A DNA stretch of 64,000 bases from Escherichia coli (GCF_003790525.1 NZ_CP033635.1); one strand, 5' to 3'. Shown: positions 9,453-15,108, counted from the first letter of the stretch. Numbers and translations are program-made. Notes: a model not told the origin generated them from the letters alone.

Positions 9453-10313
9453 TTAAGATGCCTTTCTAATCAATCGATGCCCCTCATTCATCATCAGGAT
9501 TTTGCTATACACATCTTCCTCGACGGCATTTTTTGCTGATGCCATCACTCGTGCCAGATTCGCCTCGTTGTGATTATTCACATACGCTTTGCCGACGGCA
9601 GTGATAAACGCTTTGCGCAGATCGCTGGCGATATTCACTTTAGCGACGCGATAATTAACGAAACTGCGTAATATCTCCGGGGCGATACCGGAGCCGCCGT
9701 GAATAACCAGCGGCACCGGGCTGACTTCGGCAATGCGCTTCAGCAGGGGGATATCGATCCGCGGTATATCGTCCAGGCCATGAACGTTACCAATAGAAAC
9801 TGCCAGCATGTCGCAACCGGTGCGTTCGACAAAGGTCTTCACCTTTTCCGGTTCCGTTTTGCAATCGGCTTCGCTGACGTGATCGTCTTCTTTGCCGAGA
9901 ATCGCCCCCAGCTCCGCTTCAACCGGTACGCCATAGGATTTACAGAAATCGACAGCTTCCTGGGTGAAAGCGATATTCTCTTCAAAAGAGAATGCGGCAC
10001 CGTCAATCATGACCGAGGTAAAGCCCGCGCGCACCGCCTGTTTAACATCCTCCTGAGTTTTCCCGTGATCAAGATGAAGACTGACCGGAACATCCATTTT
10101 ATCAGCGTGACGTTTCACGATTTCATAAATGTAATCGTATCCCGACAGTTGTGCATTGGTGGGCGCAATCTGAATGAAGTTGGGTAATCCTGAACGCTCA
10201 ATGGCGTTTAAAATTGAAATCGTTGTCTCCAGATTGGTGGTATTAAATGCGCCCGCTAATACCCGTTTTTCCTGAATGCGGTCGAGCAGTATCCGTCCAT
10301 TAACTAATGGCAT
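9453..10313 (-). CDS. Class II ketose-bisphosphate aldolase (tagatose-1,6-bisphosphate aldolase GatY/KbaY-like)
   Basis: 286 aa with class II aldolase motifs (LHLDHG, VEAELG, AVSIGNVHG, LVIHGGSG). Confidence 0.85.
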   Translation of the reverse strand: MPLVNGRILLDRIQEKRVLAGAFNTTNLETTISILNAIERSGLPNFIQIAPTNAQLSGYDYIYEIVKRHADKMDVPVSLHLDHGKTQEDVKQAVRAGFTSVMIDGAAFSFEENIAFTQEAVDFCKSYGVPVEAELGAILGKEDDHVSEADCKTEPEKVKTFVERTGCDMLAVSIGNVHGLDDIPRIDIPLLKRIAEVSPVPLVIHGGSGIAPEILRSFVNYRVAKVNIASDLRKAFITAVGKAYVNNHNEANLARVMASAKNAVEEDVYSKILMMNEGHRLIRKAS

Positions 10314-10344
10314 ATTGAAAACCTCATCTTTTAATATCAGTTAA

Positions 10345-10614
10345 TTATTCAGCTTCACCGAAGCGGTCGCGAAATAAGGTAGTGAGAGTTTGTATTGCCT
10401 CGTTTTCATCATCACCTTCGCAGCGTATTTCCACCGTTTTTCCGCCTTTTATTCCGGCGCGCATAATATTCATCATGCTGGTGGCATTAATATCATTACC
10501 TTCATAATGCAGCGTCACTTTACAGCTATATTTTTTGGCGGCTTTCGCCAGACAGGCCGCCGGACGTGCATGCAGGCCAGTACTGTTTCTGACCTCCACG
10601 GTTTTACTCAACAT
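10345..10614 (-). CDS. HPr-like phosphocarrier protein
   Basis: 89 aa; active-site His in GLHARPAA near the N-terminus, typical of HPr. Confidence 0.8.
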   Translation of the reverse strand: MLSKTVEVRNSTGLHARPAACLAKAAKKYSCKVTLHYEGNDINATSMMNIMRAGIKGGKTVEIRCEGDDENEAIQTLTTLFRDRFGEAE

Positions 10615-12112
10615 AGTGCTCCTCCCGATGATGTAATGGCATCACGCCTTCTTGCTGTAATTTCAACTGATACCAGCTTTTCCATTTGTGCTGATAACGC
10701 TGTAATTGATGGTATCTCGCCCGATTCGGTAACAAACGTTGGGCTATGGTGACTTGCGGCGGTGGAATATCCGGTGCGGCGGTTAATAATGCTCCGACAG
10801 AAACCGCCTCGTTAAATGCAATTGCTTCAACCGGACGCTGTAAAATATCCGCCTTTAATTGCAGCCAAAGGGGATTACGGGTTGCCGGACCTATCACTTT
10901 TAACGCGCTGGTGCCGGGCACATTAAAACAGGCGAAGCAGTTGGCAAATTCCATGGTTAATCCCAGTGAGACGCTGGCAATTAACATATCGATATTTAAC
11001 GTATCGCCAAGCCCATAAAATAATCCTCGGGTATGGCGATTTTTATAGGGCGAACCCGAACCGCGAAGATGCGGAATAAAAACGGGAATGTCATCGAGCG
11101 ACCAGTTCCCCGCCAGGTAATCCGCATGTCCGCGAGTAAGTGATGCGGCGATCTCCTCATCGGTTAGCCGGAACGTGTTGCGCAGCCACTCCAGAGCGAA
11201 ACCGCCCACCGGCAGCGACGCAAACAGGGTGAACTGGTTTGCAAGCGAATAACAGCCGTTTGCCAGCTTGTCACGTTTGGCATGTTCATCCAGCGTCGGT
11301 TGTGTATCCAGTTGCAGAATGCCTTCTGTGGTGCCCGTCGAGTTAAGGATATCGCCCGGCGTCATCTGCAACGCCCGCGCACCCACCATATGGTCATGCC
11401 CGGCCAGCGTCACGCTGACCGGTTGCAAGAACCCAAGCGTTTTGCAGAGCGACTCGCTGACCCATCCGGCGTGCTCGCCTGGCTGCACCAATGGCGCAAA
11501 TGCTGAACAGGGAACGTGTAACAACGCCGCCGCTTTCGCTGACCATTCGCCTTTACGCACGTCCAGACACAGCGTACGGCTGGCTAAGGTGATATCCGTA
11601 CGCTGTTCGCCAGTCAGCCGCCAGAGCAGTACTTCCGGCGCATGTAGCCAACGCAGGCCGCGGCGATTACGCAGTGGATAATGCTCCAGCAACCAACGCA
11701 TTTTGAAGGCAGAGTAATTGCTGTGCAGCGGTAGCCCGCAGATGTCATAAAGCGCCGCACTGTCTGCCTCACTAAGCGTTGCCAGGTACTCTTCACCGCG
11801 GCGGTCATACCATGCCAGCATTGGCGTCAGGATCTCGCCATGCTCGTCAAGAAACACCCCTGACTCGCCAAAACTGGCAATGCTTATCCGCCTGACCGGC
11901 AGCGGCGAAGCGGCGCTCAGTTGCGCTATTGCCTGGCGGACCTCCTGCCAGAGGGCGTCGATATCGAAATCGACATCGCCCTGTGGGGAGATCTGTTTTG
12001 CCGTCACGAATTTATGCGCGCCCAACGTCGTTGCATCCAGGCAGGAAAAGCAGGTGACTTTGCAATTGGTGGTGCCAATATCGATAACGATAGCTGCGCT
12101 GTTATCAGGCAT
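10604..12112 (-). CDS. FGGY-family carbohydrate kinase (xylulokinase/glycerol kinase superfamily), substrate unknown
   Basis: 502 aa; N-terminal IDIGTTNCK motif and FGGY C-terminal domain; overlaps neighbouring genes by 8-11 nt. Confidence 0.8.
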   Translation of the reverse strand: MPDNSAAIVIDIGTTNCKVTCFSCLDATTLGAHKFVTAKQISPQGDVDFDIDALWQEVRQAIAQLSAASPLPVRRISIASFGESGVFLDEHGEILTPMLAWYDRRGEEYLATLSEADSAALYDICGLPLHSNYSAFKMRWLLEHYPLRNRRGLRWLHAPEVLLWRLTGEQRTDITLASRTLCLDVRKGEWSAKAAALLHVPCSAFAPLVQPGEHAGWVSESLCKTLGFLQPVSVTLAGHDHMVGARALQMTPGDILNSTGTTEGILQLDTQPTLDEHAKRDKLANGCYSLANQFTLFASLPVGGFALEWLRNTFRLTDEEIAASLTRGHADYLAGNWSLDDIPVFIPHLRGSGSPYKNRHTRGLFYGLGDTLNIDMLIASVSLGLTMEFANCFACFNVPGTSALKVIGPATRNPLWLQLKADILQRPVEAIAFNEAVSVGALLTAAPDIPPPQVTIAQRLLPNRARYHQLQRYQHKWKSWYQLKLQQEGVMPLHHREEHYVE

Positions 12113-14288: not shown

Positions 14289-14312
14289 TTTATTCCTCAT
14301 AAAAAAGTGTAT

Positions 14313-15068
14313 TTAACTCACTTCCCGCCGTTGCAGCACGGTGCCCAGATAATATTTATTTCCTTTTAACCAGACGTTGCCAAACTCAACGGGTAACTCT
14401 CGGGAGAAAAAGACTAACTGCTCCAGATGCAAAACGGGTGCATCTTCACTGATATCTAAAAAATGACCGCGTTCATTACCAATTAATCGCGCGGCATAGC
14501 GACTTTCCGAGTAACGAATTTTTCTTTGCGACAAACTTTCTATTGTTGGAAATAAATTGTGTTGATTAAAATCGATTTCCACGATGCCGGGGCATAGCTC
14601 AATATTGATACGGTTCTCTATCAGCATCGCTTTTTCATCACCAATTGAACGTAAACGCTCAAGGTAAAGAATATCCTGACCGGGCGTTATTCTTAATTTC
14701 TCTGCCACATAACGATTAGCCGGTTCAATCCGTGACGTAATAACTTCAGTGGTAAAATGTATTTTCTGGCTTTCCAGCGATTCCGCGAATGACAATAATC
14801 CTTCACCTAACGGATATGCCACGTTCTCTTTTTTGACAAAAGTTCCCTTCCCCTGGACCTGAATCAACACGCCTTCTTTTACCAGTTGGGCGACCGCTTT
14901 TTTAACGGTTCCCCGACTCACTTCCAGCATATCCATAATCTGGTATTCCGAAGGAATGCGATCGTCTTCCACCAGATCCCCGGTATAAATACTTTCTCTT
15001 ATCCACTCCACCACTTGTTGATAGAGCGGTATTTGTGACGACTTACTTAATGATTTCATGGCGCGCAC
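14313..15068 (-). CDS. GntR/HutC-family transcriptional regulator with UTRA effector domain; probable regulator of the adjacent PTS operon
   Basis: 251 aa; N-terminal wHTH (SEYQIMDMLEVSRGTVKKAVAQLVKEGVL) and C-terminal UTRA-like domain. Confidence 0.85.
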   Translation of the reverse strand: MRAMKSLSKSSQIPLYQQVVEWIRESIYTGDLVEDDRIPSEYQIMDMLEVSRGTVKKAVAQLVKEGVLIQVQGKGTFVKKENVAYPLGEGLLSFAESLESQKIHFTTEVITSRIEPANRYVAEKLRITPGQDILYLERLRSIGDEKAMLIENRINIELCPGIVEIDFNQHNLFPTIESLSQRKIRYSESRYAARLIGNERGHFLDISEDAPVLHLEQLVFFSRELPVEFGNVWLKGNKYYLGTVLQRREVS

Positions 15069-15080
15069 CTGAACATTTAC

Positions 15081-15108
15081 AGTTGTCTATGGACAATCAT
15101 GGACAACT
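15081..15108. promoter_or_regulatory. Nested palindrome AGTTGTC-N14-GACAACT / TTGTC-N4-GACAA, candidate operator of the GntR/HutC regulator
   Basis: Perfect inverted repeats 13-40 bp upstream of the regulator start codon. Confidence 0.5.

Follow-up and report, generated by a model that had tools for sequence, protein, structure and literature searches.

The stretch of DNA analyzed here is a 64,000-nucleotide window of Escherichia coli (NZ_CP033635.1), 100% identical in sequence to E. coli SMS-3-5, and the element under study is a sugar phosphotransferase system (PTS) operon at positions 9453–15108 of this window. It comprises seven intact open reading frames (ORFs) on the minus strand, between nikR (15258–15659) and a hicA/hicB pair adjoining yhhJ. 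The first gene encodes a GntR/HutC-type regulator with a winged helix and a UTRA domain (14313–15059, 248 aa; ORF and RefSeq coding sequence). It is followed by genes for a PTS EIIA of the mannitol/fructose/galactitol type (EIIA_2; 13815–14288, 157 aa) and an EIIB of the Gat type (PTS_IIB; 13537–13818, 93 aa), both from RefSeq coding sequences and NCBIfam, and for an EIIC of the galactitol (Gat) family (12105–13463, 452 aa; RefSeq coding sequence and TIGR00827). The last three genes encode an FGGY-family carbohydrate kinase (10604–12112, 502 aa; ORF, RefSeq coding sequence and NCBIfam), an HPr-family phosphocarrier (10345–10614, 89 aa; TIGR01003) and a class II metal-dependent ketose-bisphosphate aldolase of the NF005943/PRK07998 type (9453–10313, 286 aa; NCBIfam). 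Intergenic gaps do not exceed 73 bp, and three gene pairs overlap by 4–11 nt, namely EIIA/EIIB, EIIC/kinase (8 nt) and kinase/HPr (11 nt).

The initial annotation of this DNA had placed a seven-gene minus-strand operon between yhhJ and nikR, where K-12 was said to carry rhsB-yhhH-yhhI, and had named the gene families. The ORFs and RefSeq coding sequences agree with this layout, the K-12 order at the site is nikR-rhsB-yhhH-yrhC'-yhhI-yhhJ, and the families agree with NCBIfam and with the Pfam matches on the Salmonella ortholog. The annotation was also right that a GatZ/KbaZ subunit and a polyol-phosphate dehydrogenase (GatD) are absent, since no further ORF fits in the cluster and none for either protein lies between nikR and hicB. 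NCBIfam upholds every family assignment, and none of the seven proteins reaches the cut-off of a characterized equivalog; only three models have their cut-offs passed, namely the generic HPr family, the ketose-bisphosphate aldolase subfamily and the uncharacterized aldolase model NF005943.

The transport proteins belong to the PTS galactitol (Gat) family (TC 4.A.5), as the EIIC-GAT domain is present and EIIA and EIIB are separate proteins with their active residues. EIIC matches TIGR00827 over 406 of 407 profile positions (E 7.5e-143), with a score of 476 bits that lies under the 542-bit cut-off; its start is the ATG at 13463 (RefSeq), with AAGAGG on its 5′ side, and PF03611 is found on the Salmonella ortholog. 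EIIB has its active-site Cys9 aligned with the Cys of the GatB structures 1TVM and 5GQS (60 bits against a GatB cut-off of 95). The phosphorylatable His67 of EIIA sits in an AIPH motif, and the protein aligns from end to end with PDB 1XIZ (E 1e-60), with IPH kept (57 bits against a GatA cut-off of 139). 1XIZ, the closest solved structure, is presumably Salmonella STM3784, and EIIA is the only protein of the operon with a solved ortholog. A designation as galactitol-specific GatABC does not fit, as the GatA, GatB and GatC scores are all below cut-off and the GatD and GatZ genes are missing from the cluster. The list of EIIA matches also holds HIV-1 epitope-scaffold entries with the names T117 and 10E8-GT; because one of them is named after 1XIZ, the 1XIZ protein appears to be the scaffold underlying these immunogens.

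The HPr protein scores 103.5 bits with TIGR01003 (cut-off 47.9), and its His15 (in GLHARPA), Arg17 and Ser46 align with those of 3LE1. It fails the equivalog cut-offs for PtsH (52 against 153) and NPr (PtsO; 48.5 against 119), and scores higher with a Firmicute HPr (77 bits with 3LE1) than with the PtsH of E. coli (45 bits). The regulator has full-length NCBIfam matches to GntR families of the HutC/PhnF/TreR type, and its Salmonella ortholog carries PF00392 and PF07702; its ATG at 15059 is backed by an AGGTG Shine-Dalgarno sequence and is kept in 18 taxa.

The aldolase passes the cut-offs of NF005943 (556 against 364 bits) and TIGR00167 (220.7 against 215.6), and falls below those of the equivalogs GatY (239/383), KbaY (182/542) and the fructose-bisphosphate aldolase model TIGR01859 (237/343). 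Its best solved structure, which is not close, is AgaY at 168 bits. The motifs LHLDH, HGL and HG(G/A)S align with D82/H83, H180 and H208 of AgaY (1GVF), so that the catalytic Asp and the three metal-binding His of the PF01116 family are present, as they are in AgaY.

The FGGY kinase lies below all NCBIfam equivalogs (XylB 146/380, GlpK 130/590, FucK 120/471), the characterized subfamilies whose cut-off it misses being XylB, GlpK, FucK, RhaB, GntK, AraB and LsrK; partial FucK and RhaB matches cover its N-terminal domain. PF00370 and PF02782 (FGGY_N and FGGY_C) are found on a 97%-identical protein, and the AlphaFold model has a complete two-domain FGGY fold (pLDDT 90). Foldseek places this model roughly equidistant from GlpK, XylB and GntK (TM 0.8–0.87, 18–22% identity), and this structure comparison gave no hint of specificity; the best-matching solved structures, none of them close, are glycerol kinases at about 90 bits. 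The ATP-binding and catalytic motifs, including DxGTTN and GHDH, are invariant in 23 kinase homologs, as are residues D11, G13, T15, N16, D240 and G260-T261, and the glycerol-binding Arg83 of GlpK corresponds to Gly82. FucK and RhaB, which carry GHDT or SHDT, phosphorylate C1 of a ketose. The kinase evolves about three times faster than its neighbors (the E. coli and Salmonella proteins are 63% identical, where EIIC and aldolase reach 89%; across phyla 35–42%, against 70–78% for EIIC), and within the E. coli operon it has the highest G+C content (GC; 0.55, against 0.43 for the regulator).

Related loci and distribution

One genome per species with a kinase alignment was scored with the seven E. 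coli proteins, which gave 80 related loci; apart from one truncated contig, they fall into three architectures. Type 1 (34 loci, 19 from Enterobacterales and 15 from Bacillota) has the regulator, aldolase, EIIA, EIIB, EIIC and kinase and no other enzyme. Type 2 (28 loci, in Erwinia, Pantoea, Raoultella, Serratia, Gilliamella, Bacillus and Oceanobacillus) has the same content and one or two Zn-dependent dehydrogenases. Type 3 (17 loci, in Actinobacteria) has the aldolase–kinase pair without a PTS, and polyol transporters, a dehydrogenase and sugar ABC transporters are found near these loci. The operon, which might have been taken for a peculiarity of one strain, is in this light an accessory copy of a widespread module conserved across phyla.

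The EIIC of E. coli is 70–78% identical to the Type 1 EIIC of Enterococcus, Listeria, Selenomonas and Pectinatus, and 55–62% identical to Type 2 EIIC, which argues that the two types are of two distinct predicted specificities. Since one of the Type 2 dehydrogenases is closest to galactitol-1-phosphate dehydrogenase, Type 2 is by sequence the putative polyol version of the same route. Enterobacterial Type 2 loci have an aldolase 81–91% and a regulator 68–70% identical to those of E. coli, together with the same operator, and because these are common to both types, Types 1 and 2 seem to converge on a common aldolase substrate and effector. In Type 3 a second, XylB-like FGGY kinase directly follows the aldolase–kinase pair in all 17 loci. 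No such kinase was found at the cluster in any of the 62 PTS loci; the sole extra match, 27% identical, is about 7 kb from the kinase in Enterococcus malodoratus (locus L034). As the PTS and the XylB-like kinase never co-occur at the cluster, the simplest reading is that they are interchangeable for adding the first phosphate, and that the conserved FGGY kinase would add the second.

Modules have been shuffled in Type 2 clusters of Erwinia, Pantoea, Raoultella and Serratia, where regulator, aldolase and HPr are close to those of E. coli and EIIA, EIIB, EIIC and kinase are distant (28–59%; loci L038, L043, L049, L050, L052, L054, L060, L063, L065, L070, L073, L085 and L087). A SurE-like phosphatase is often present in these clusters as well. 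In Enterococcus raffinosus, E. malodoratus and E. avium (L033, L034 and L035, about 9900–16900) a second class II aldolase gene lies directly downstream of the Type 1 cassette, with an Mga/PRD-type regulator and a Zn-dependent dehydrogenase; together they resemble a neighboring, related cluster for a sugar or polyol. The truncated contig is L015.

All Enterobacterales loci of the two PTS types encode HPr, as do some loci of Bacillus and Paenibacillus; it is missing from the loci of Enterococcus, Listeria, Selenomonas, Pectinatus, Gilliamella and Actinobacteria. Among the Type 1 loci it is always found in the 19 from Enterobacterales and never in the 15 from Bacillota (Enterococcus, Anaeromonas, Selenomonas, Centipeda, Pectinatus and others), so its presence follows the host taxon and not the type of cluster. 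We infer that it may serve as an adapter of a foreign EIIA to the host PTS. The 11-nt overlap with the kinase gene was considered as a sign of a functional link and rejected, as the aldolase gene intervenes in Salmonella and most genera; the overlap is limited to Escherichia, Citrobacter amalonaticus, Enterobacter cancerogenus and one Pantoea species. A private HPr had been called atypical in the initial annotation. It is indeed uncommon, yet it has precedents, since E. coli K-12 has the additional HPr proteins FruB, PtsO, FryA and DhaM.

The operon is a single-copy chromosomal element in 1637 of 5426 complete E. coli genomes (about 30%), which agrees with the accessory status first assigned to it, and in 1635 of them all seven genes are intact at ≥95% identity. 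Carriers include O157:H7, O145, the ST131 strain JJ1887, the asymptomatic-bacteriuria strain 83972 and avian pathogenic E. coli (APEC) O1:K1:H7, and E. whittamii has the operon at the same nikR junction. Across these 5426 genomes the nikR/yhhJ junction (about 8700–15258) has at least three states. The first, with the operon and hicAB, is that of the 1637 carriers (30%); a K-12-type nikR-rhsB arrangement is found in 2099 genomes (39%); and an empty site with a nikR-yhhJ spacing of 8 bp occurs, for example, in FDAARGOS_536.

Selection was assessed by comparing the genes of SMS-3-5 with their orthologs in O157:H7 Sakai (ECs4349-4355), with the flanking nik genes for comparison. All seven genes are intact in both strains, and the ratios of nonsynonymous to synonymous substitution rates (dN/dS, 0.00–0.21) and the dS values (0.09–0.30) span the range of the flanking nikR and nikE; dN/dS is 0.08 for the regulator, 0.055 for the kinase and 0.024 for the aldolase, and EIIC has no nonsynonymous differences. 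This match with the flanking genes indicates purifying selection and vertical inheritance of the operon. Pseudogenization was rejected on the same dN/dS values. The GC of the cluster is below that of its flanks in enterobacteria and equals that of the genome in Enterococcus and Listeria, which fits a possible origin in low-GC bacteria.

Control region and operon ends

A palindrome immediately upstream of the regulator gene is the predicted operator (AGTTGTCCATGATTGTCCATAGACAACT on the operon strand, 15081–15108), recognized from inverted and direct repeats and from the phylogenetic footprint. Its arms (15081–15091 and 15098–15108) are 11 nt each and 91% complementary, far beyond chance, and within it ATGGACAA is directly repeated with a spacing of 10 nt. 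The footprint resolves it into a core, the 14-bp palindrome TTGTCCATAGACAA at 15083–15096, and an extra upstream half-site. An alignment of the region upstream of the regulator from 18 enterobacterial taxa has variable flanks around a near-invariant block, GTTGTaCATGATTGTCyATAGACAAC. Each of the 20 distinct enterobacterial Type 1 loci (17 kb) has the core, TTGTCyATAGACAA, exactly once, and always 37 nt 5′ of the regulator ATG. Variants accompany related regulators in every case: TTGTACATAGACAA precedes EIIA in those Type 2 clusters that have a regulator of about 70% identity, and TTGTATATAGACAA lies upstream of the regulator in Selenomonas and Centipeda. The operators of the HutC subfamily have a GTnTAnAC-like core, as does this palindrome.

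The 14-bp core is unique in the window, and this, together with its fixed position in 20 taxa, excludes a chance palindrome. We consider it very likely, from this conservation, that the palindrome is the operator of the regulator; the operator first proposed at 15081–15108 has held up, with its core at a fixed position in every enterobacterial ortholog and variants accompanying related regulators elsewhere. The only other near match to the core in the window, TTGTCCTTTGACAA at 41325–41338 with two mismatches, is probably due to chance.

A predicted −10 hexamer, TACTAT, lies at 15117–15122 (minus strand), where TAnnAT is found at the same alignment column in 17 of the 18 taxa, and transcription is predicted to start near 15110. 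The operator would then cover about +1 to +30, a classical position for repression. Centered at about −41.5 from the predicted start is a proximal CRP-like site, TGTGA-N6-TCGAT (15144–15159, minus strand), of which the right half is degenerate, while 17 of the 18 taxa keep the A(3)nTGTGA half-site without change and one has CGTGA, at a fixed distance from the −10 hexamer. The alignment also brings out a distal CRP-like site 46 bp upstream of it (15190–15205, minus strand), which is near the consensus TGTGA-N6-TCACA in most genera and has a degenerate left half (ATCGA) in Escherichia. The operon is probably CRP-dependent, judging from these sites. A TGATC sequence containing a Dam GATC site (about 15176–15184, minus strand), 7 nt past the TCACA half-site of the distal site, is invariant in all 18 aligned promoters.

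At the other end of the operon, folding recovered a strong hairpin at 9406–9440, between the convergent aldolase and hicB genes, which a consensus terminator scan had missed. It folds with −22.9 kcal/mol on the operon strand (z −5.9) and with −20.2 on the plus strand, where a U-run follows, and it is a probable bidirectional terminator marking the 3′-end of the operon. A scan of the region with Rfam found no RNA element. The hicA/hicB toxin–antitoxin pair (8773–9403, plus strand) between yhhJ and the aldolase gene had been passed over in the initial annotation. In SMS-3-5 RefSeq annotates hicA as frameshifted and hicB as intact, and in O157:H7 Sakai hicA is intact (ECs_4357). Repeats resembling GATGTCATA lie directly upstream of hicA.

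Proposed pathway and its alternatives

We suggest, and would put the chances at about even, that the operon is a self-contained, repressor-controlled unit for ketose catabolism, in which phosphorylation by the PTS is followed by a second phosphorylation by the FGGY kinase and then by aldolase cleavage. Phosphoryl groups would be relayed from enzyme I (EI) to the HPr of the operon (His15), and on to EIIA (His67) and EIIB (Cys9). The Gat-family EIIC would import the ketose and release a product phosphorylated on one terminal carbon, the kinase would use ATP to phosphorylate the other terminal carbon, giving a ketose 1,6-bisphosphate, and the class II aldolase would cleave this into dihydroxyacetone phosphate (DHAP) and glyceraldehyde 3-phosphate, or erythrose 4-phosphate in place of the latter if the substrate is a heptulose. 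The GntR/HutC regulator would repress from the palindrome at about +1 to +30 until released by a pathway intermediate. A ketose is suggested because neither an isomerase nor a dehydrogenase belongs to the Type 1 cassette, which stands without other enzymes in 19 Enterobacterales and 15 Bacillota species. The substrate would most likely be a ketohexose and possibly a heptulose; either would give only central metabolites as products. The initial annotation had held that neither substrate nor reaction order could be read from known pathways; an order can be proposed from comparative genomics, but the substrate indeed cannot be read in this way, and textbook fermentation phenotypes of carrier species gave no consistent substrate pattern.

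It follows from this pathway, and here we are more tentative, that the kinase could be the first FGGY enzyme acting on a phosphorylated ketose (a ketose-phosphate 1-kinase), within an undescribed three-step route for a ketohexose or heptuloses. Several points weigh against such a pathway. We know of no FGGY kinase shown to accept an already phosphorylated sugar. The kinase gene is the fastest-evolving of the set (35–42% identity against 70–78% for EIIC), which could mean that its role is auxiliary and not central. For full activity, GatY and KbaY of E. coli depend on GatZ or KbaZ, and the cluster encodes neither. The XylB-like kinase of Actinobacteria could serve a parallel pentitol branch. 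On the regulatory side, the spacing of 46 bp between the two CRP-like sites is out of helical phase, and the distal one is degenerate in Escherichia; a consensus scan picked up no promoter ahead of the regulator gene, which fits the expectation that an activator-dependent promoter escapes such a scan. Finally, all steps rest on sequence comparison, from which we infer the class of substrate, the carbons that receive phosphate, the sequence of reactions, the dependence on CRP and what HPr does.

The kinase can be accommodated in other ways. The aldolase could act before it, on a ketose 1-phosphate delivered by the PTS, releasing DHAP and an aldehyde such as glyceraldehyde for the FGGY kinase to phosphorylate as a triokinase, much as in the hepatic fructose pathway. 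Such an order would leave the kinase with the unphosphorylated type of substrate that FGGY kinases normally use; glycerol kinases, which are known to accept glyceraldehyde, are among its closest structures and profiles, and some PF01116 aldolases take monophosphates, reportedly including YdjI (6OFU), which is among the structure matches. However, the glycerol-binding Arg83 of GlpK is a Gly throughout the operon's kinase family, and the GatD-like dehydrogenase of the polyol-type clusters would produce a ketose with its phosphate far from the keto group, from which, by known gat chemistry, no DHAP can be obtained without a C1 kinase. In the PTS-free loci, moreover, the PTS is replaced by a XylB-like kinase, and XylB-type enzymes phosphorylate the distal carbon. 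We regard this order as unlikely. Rather improbable, too, is a salvage role, in which the FGGY kinase would make the PTS-type monophosphate from free intracellular sugar arising by leakage or dephosphorylation, and a host phosphofructokinase would add the second phosphate. The gat pathway does use PfkA and has no kinase of its own, and fast evolution fits an auxiliary, less constrained enzyme, but in all Type 1 PTS loci, which span three phyla, the kinase gene adjoins that of EIIC and in most cases overlaps it, and it adjoins the aldolase gene in all PTS-free loci, where two different FGGY kinases side by side would be redundant; nor does a dN/dS of 0.055 for the kinase favor such a role.

Two further explanations concern the operon as a whole. 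The operon could be taken for a second copy of the characterized galactitol (gat) or N-acetylgalactosamine (aga/kba) system, since RefSeq and NCBIfam give its proteins names like 'PTS galactitol transporter subunit IIC' and the leading subfamily matches are to GatY. The GatA, GatB, GatC, GatY and KbaY models all score below their curated cut-offs, GatD and GatZ/KbaZ are missing from the cluster, the regulator is of the GntR/HutC type whereas GatR is of the DeoR type, and papers call the specificity of the Salmonella ortholog unknown, all of which makes a second copy very improbable; a second gat operon in particular was rejected on the sub-cut-off scores and the lack of GatD and GatZ. D-tagatose may still be the ketose imported, in which case it belongs under the PTS–kinase–aldolase pathway. 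A cryptic or decaying island without current function would agree with the absence of the operon from about 70% of complete E. coli genomes, with the H-NS silencing of its ortholog in Salmonella (PMC3604774) and with the neighboring hicA being a pseudogene in this strain. It is hard to reconcile with seven genes intact in 1635 genomes at ≥95% identity and dN/dS of 0.00–0.21, with regulatory DNA conserved across genera, and with reported expression changes in Salmonella (PMC11000858, PMC3075218), and we give it very little weight.

The operon is not categorically new, as it is of a PTS–kinase–aldolase type like the galactitol and tagatose systems, and it has already been annotated and appears in print. 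It is a distinct, conserved and uncharacterized variant of this type, with an FGGY kinase in place of a second kinase of the PfkB/PfkA type, a dedicated HPr and an operator that is well defined. Enterobacteria have many orphan PTS operons, of which this is one. Medically important lineages carry it, whereas K-12 lacks it, and this lack probably explains why no one has studied it. Its sugar, once found, would add a nutrient niche separating carrier lineages from commensal laboratory strains; the candidates are ketohexoses and heptuloses, and the matching polyols for the sister clusters. If the proposed pathway holds, it would be a route for a ketohexose or heptuloses covered by no known pathway of E. 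coli or Salmonella, with an aldolase–kinase core reused with a polyol dehydrogenase in enterobacteria and bacilli or with a XylB-like first kinase in actinobacteria, and the Firmicute-like HPr beside the cassette in Enterobacterales may link it with the PTS of the host. If the FGGY kinase does add a second phosphate, this would be new enzymology, extending known FGGY chemistry to phosphosugars.

Comparison with known systems

The closest counterpart is the cassette STM3779-STM3785 of Salmonella enterica, on an island sometimes counted with SPI-3, which is orthologous to the operon (EIIC 89%, aldolase 89%, regulator 82%, kinase 63% and HPr 47% identical). Gene families, operator and promoter layout are the same; the Salmonella cassette differs in its kinase-aldolase-HPr order, in which the last two genes are swapped, and in its chromosomal site. 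The Salmonella island has been described as a complete PTS for 'unknown carbohydrate utilization' that is AT-rich, silenced by H-NS and induced by H2O2 (2013, PMC3604774), and the same paper, a work of comparative genomics, counts it as one of the acquisitions made by the ancestor of subspecies enterica (I). It has also been described as a putative sugar phosphotransferase activated by ArcA (PMC3075218), and its 'unknown sugars' genes are on in a permissive chicken caecal community (2024, PMC11000858). These reports of silencing, induction, activation and caecal expression show an island that is both expressed and under control. The full-text literature, most subscription journals being outside this coverage, yielded no study of the substrate or enzymes of the operon or its ortholog. 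No match to a characterized operon with a known substrate turned up there, the statements found being limited to 'unknown specificity' and transcriptome mentions.

Compared with gatYZABCD-gatR of E. coli, the operon has in common the three Gat-family proteins EIIA, EIIB and EIIC, a class II aldolase that falls in the same Pfam family, and the expected end point of DHAP and glyceraldehyde 3-phosphate. It differs in having no GatD and no GatZ, in missing all Gat equivalog cut-offs, in its dedicated FGGY kinase where gat relies on PfkA, in its own HPr, in its GntR/HutC regulator where that of gat is of the DeoR type, and in that a ketose, not a polyol, is implied as the substrate. A PTS-dependent D-tagatose pathway with a tagatose PTS, TagK and GatYZ was reportedly described by Van der Heiden et al. 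in 2013 in Klebsiella oxytoca and Bacillus licheniformis. The logic is common to both, with PTS uptake of a ketose, a dedicated second kinase and cleavage of the bisphosphate by a class II aldolase, but the tagatose pathway uses a fructose-family PTS, a PfkB-family kinase and GatZ, whereas the operon has a Gat-family PTS, an FGGY kinase and no GatZ.

The frz operon of extraintestinal pathogenic E. coli (ExPEC), reportedly described by Rouquet et al. in 2009, is likewise an accessory PTS with a kinase and a class II aldolase in pathogenic E. coli lineages, with an unknown substrate; in frz, however, the PTS is of the fructose family and the kinase a ROK kinase, an MgA-type activator, a cupin protein and two aldolases are encoded, and the site is a different one. 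The L-fucose and L-rhamnose pathways (FucK/FucA and RhaB/RhaD) resemble the one proposed here in that an FGGY kinase phosphorylates a ketose on C1 before DHAP is released by a metal-dependent aldolase, but those kinases act on free 6-deoxy-ketoses, their aldolases are of the FucA-type family and no PTS is involved.

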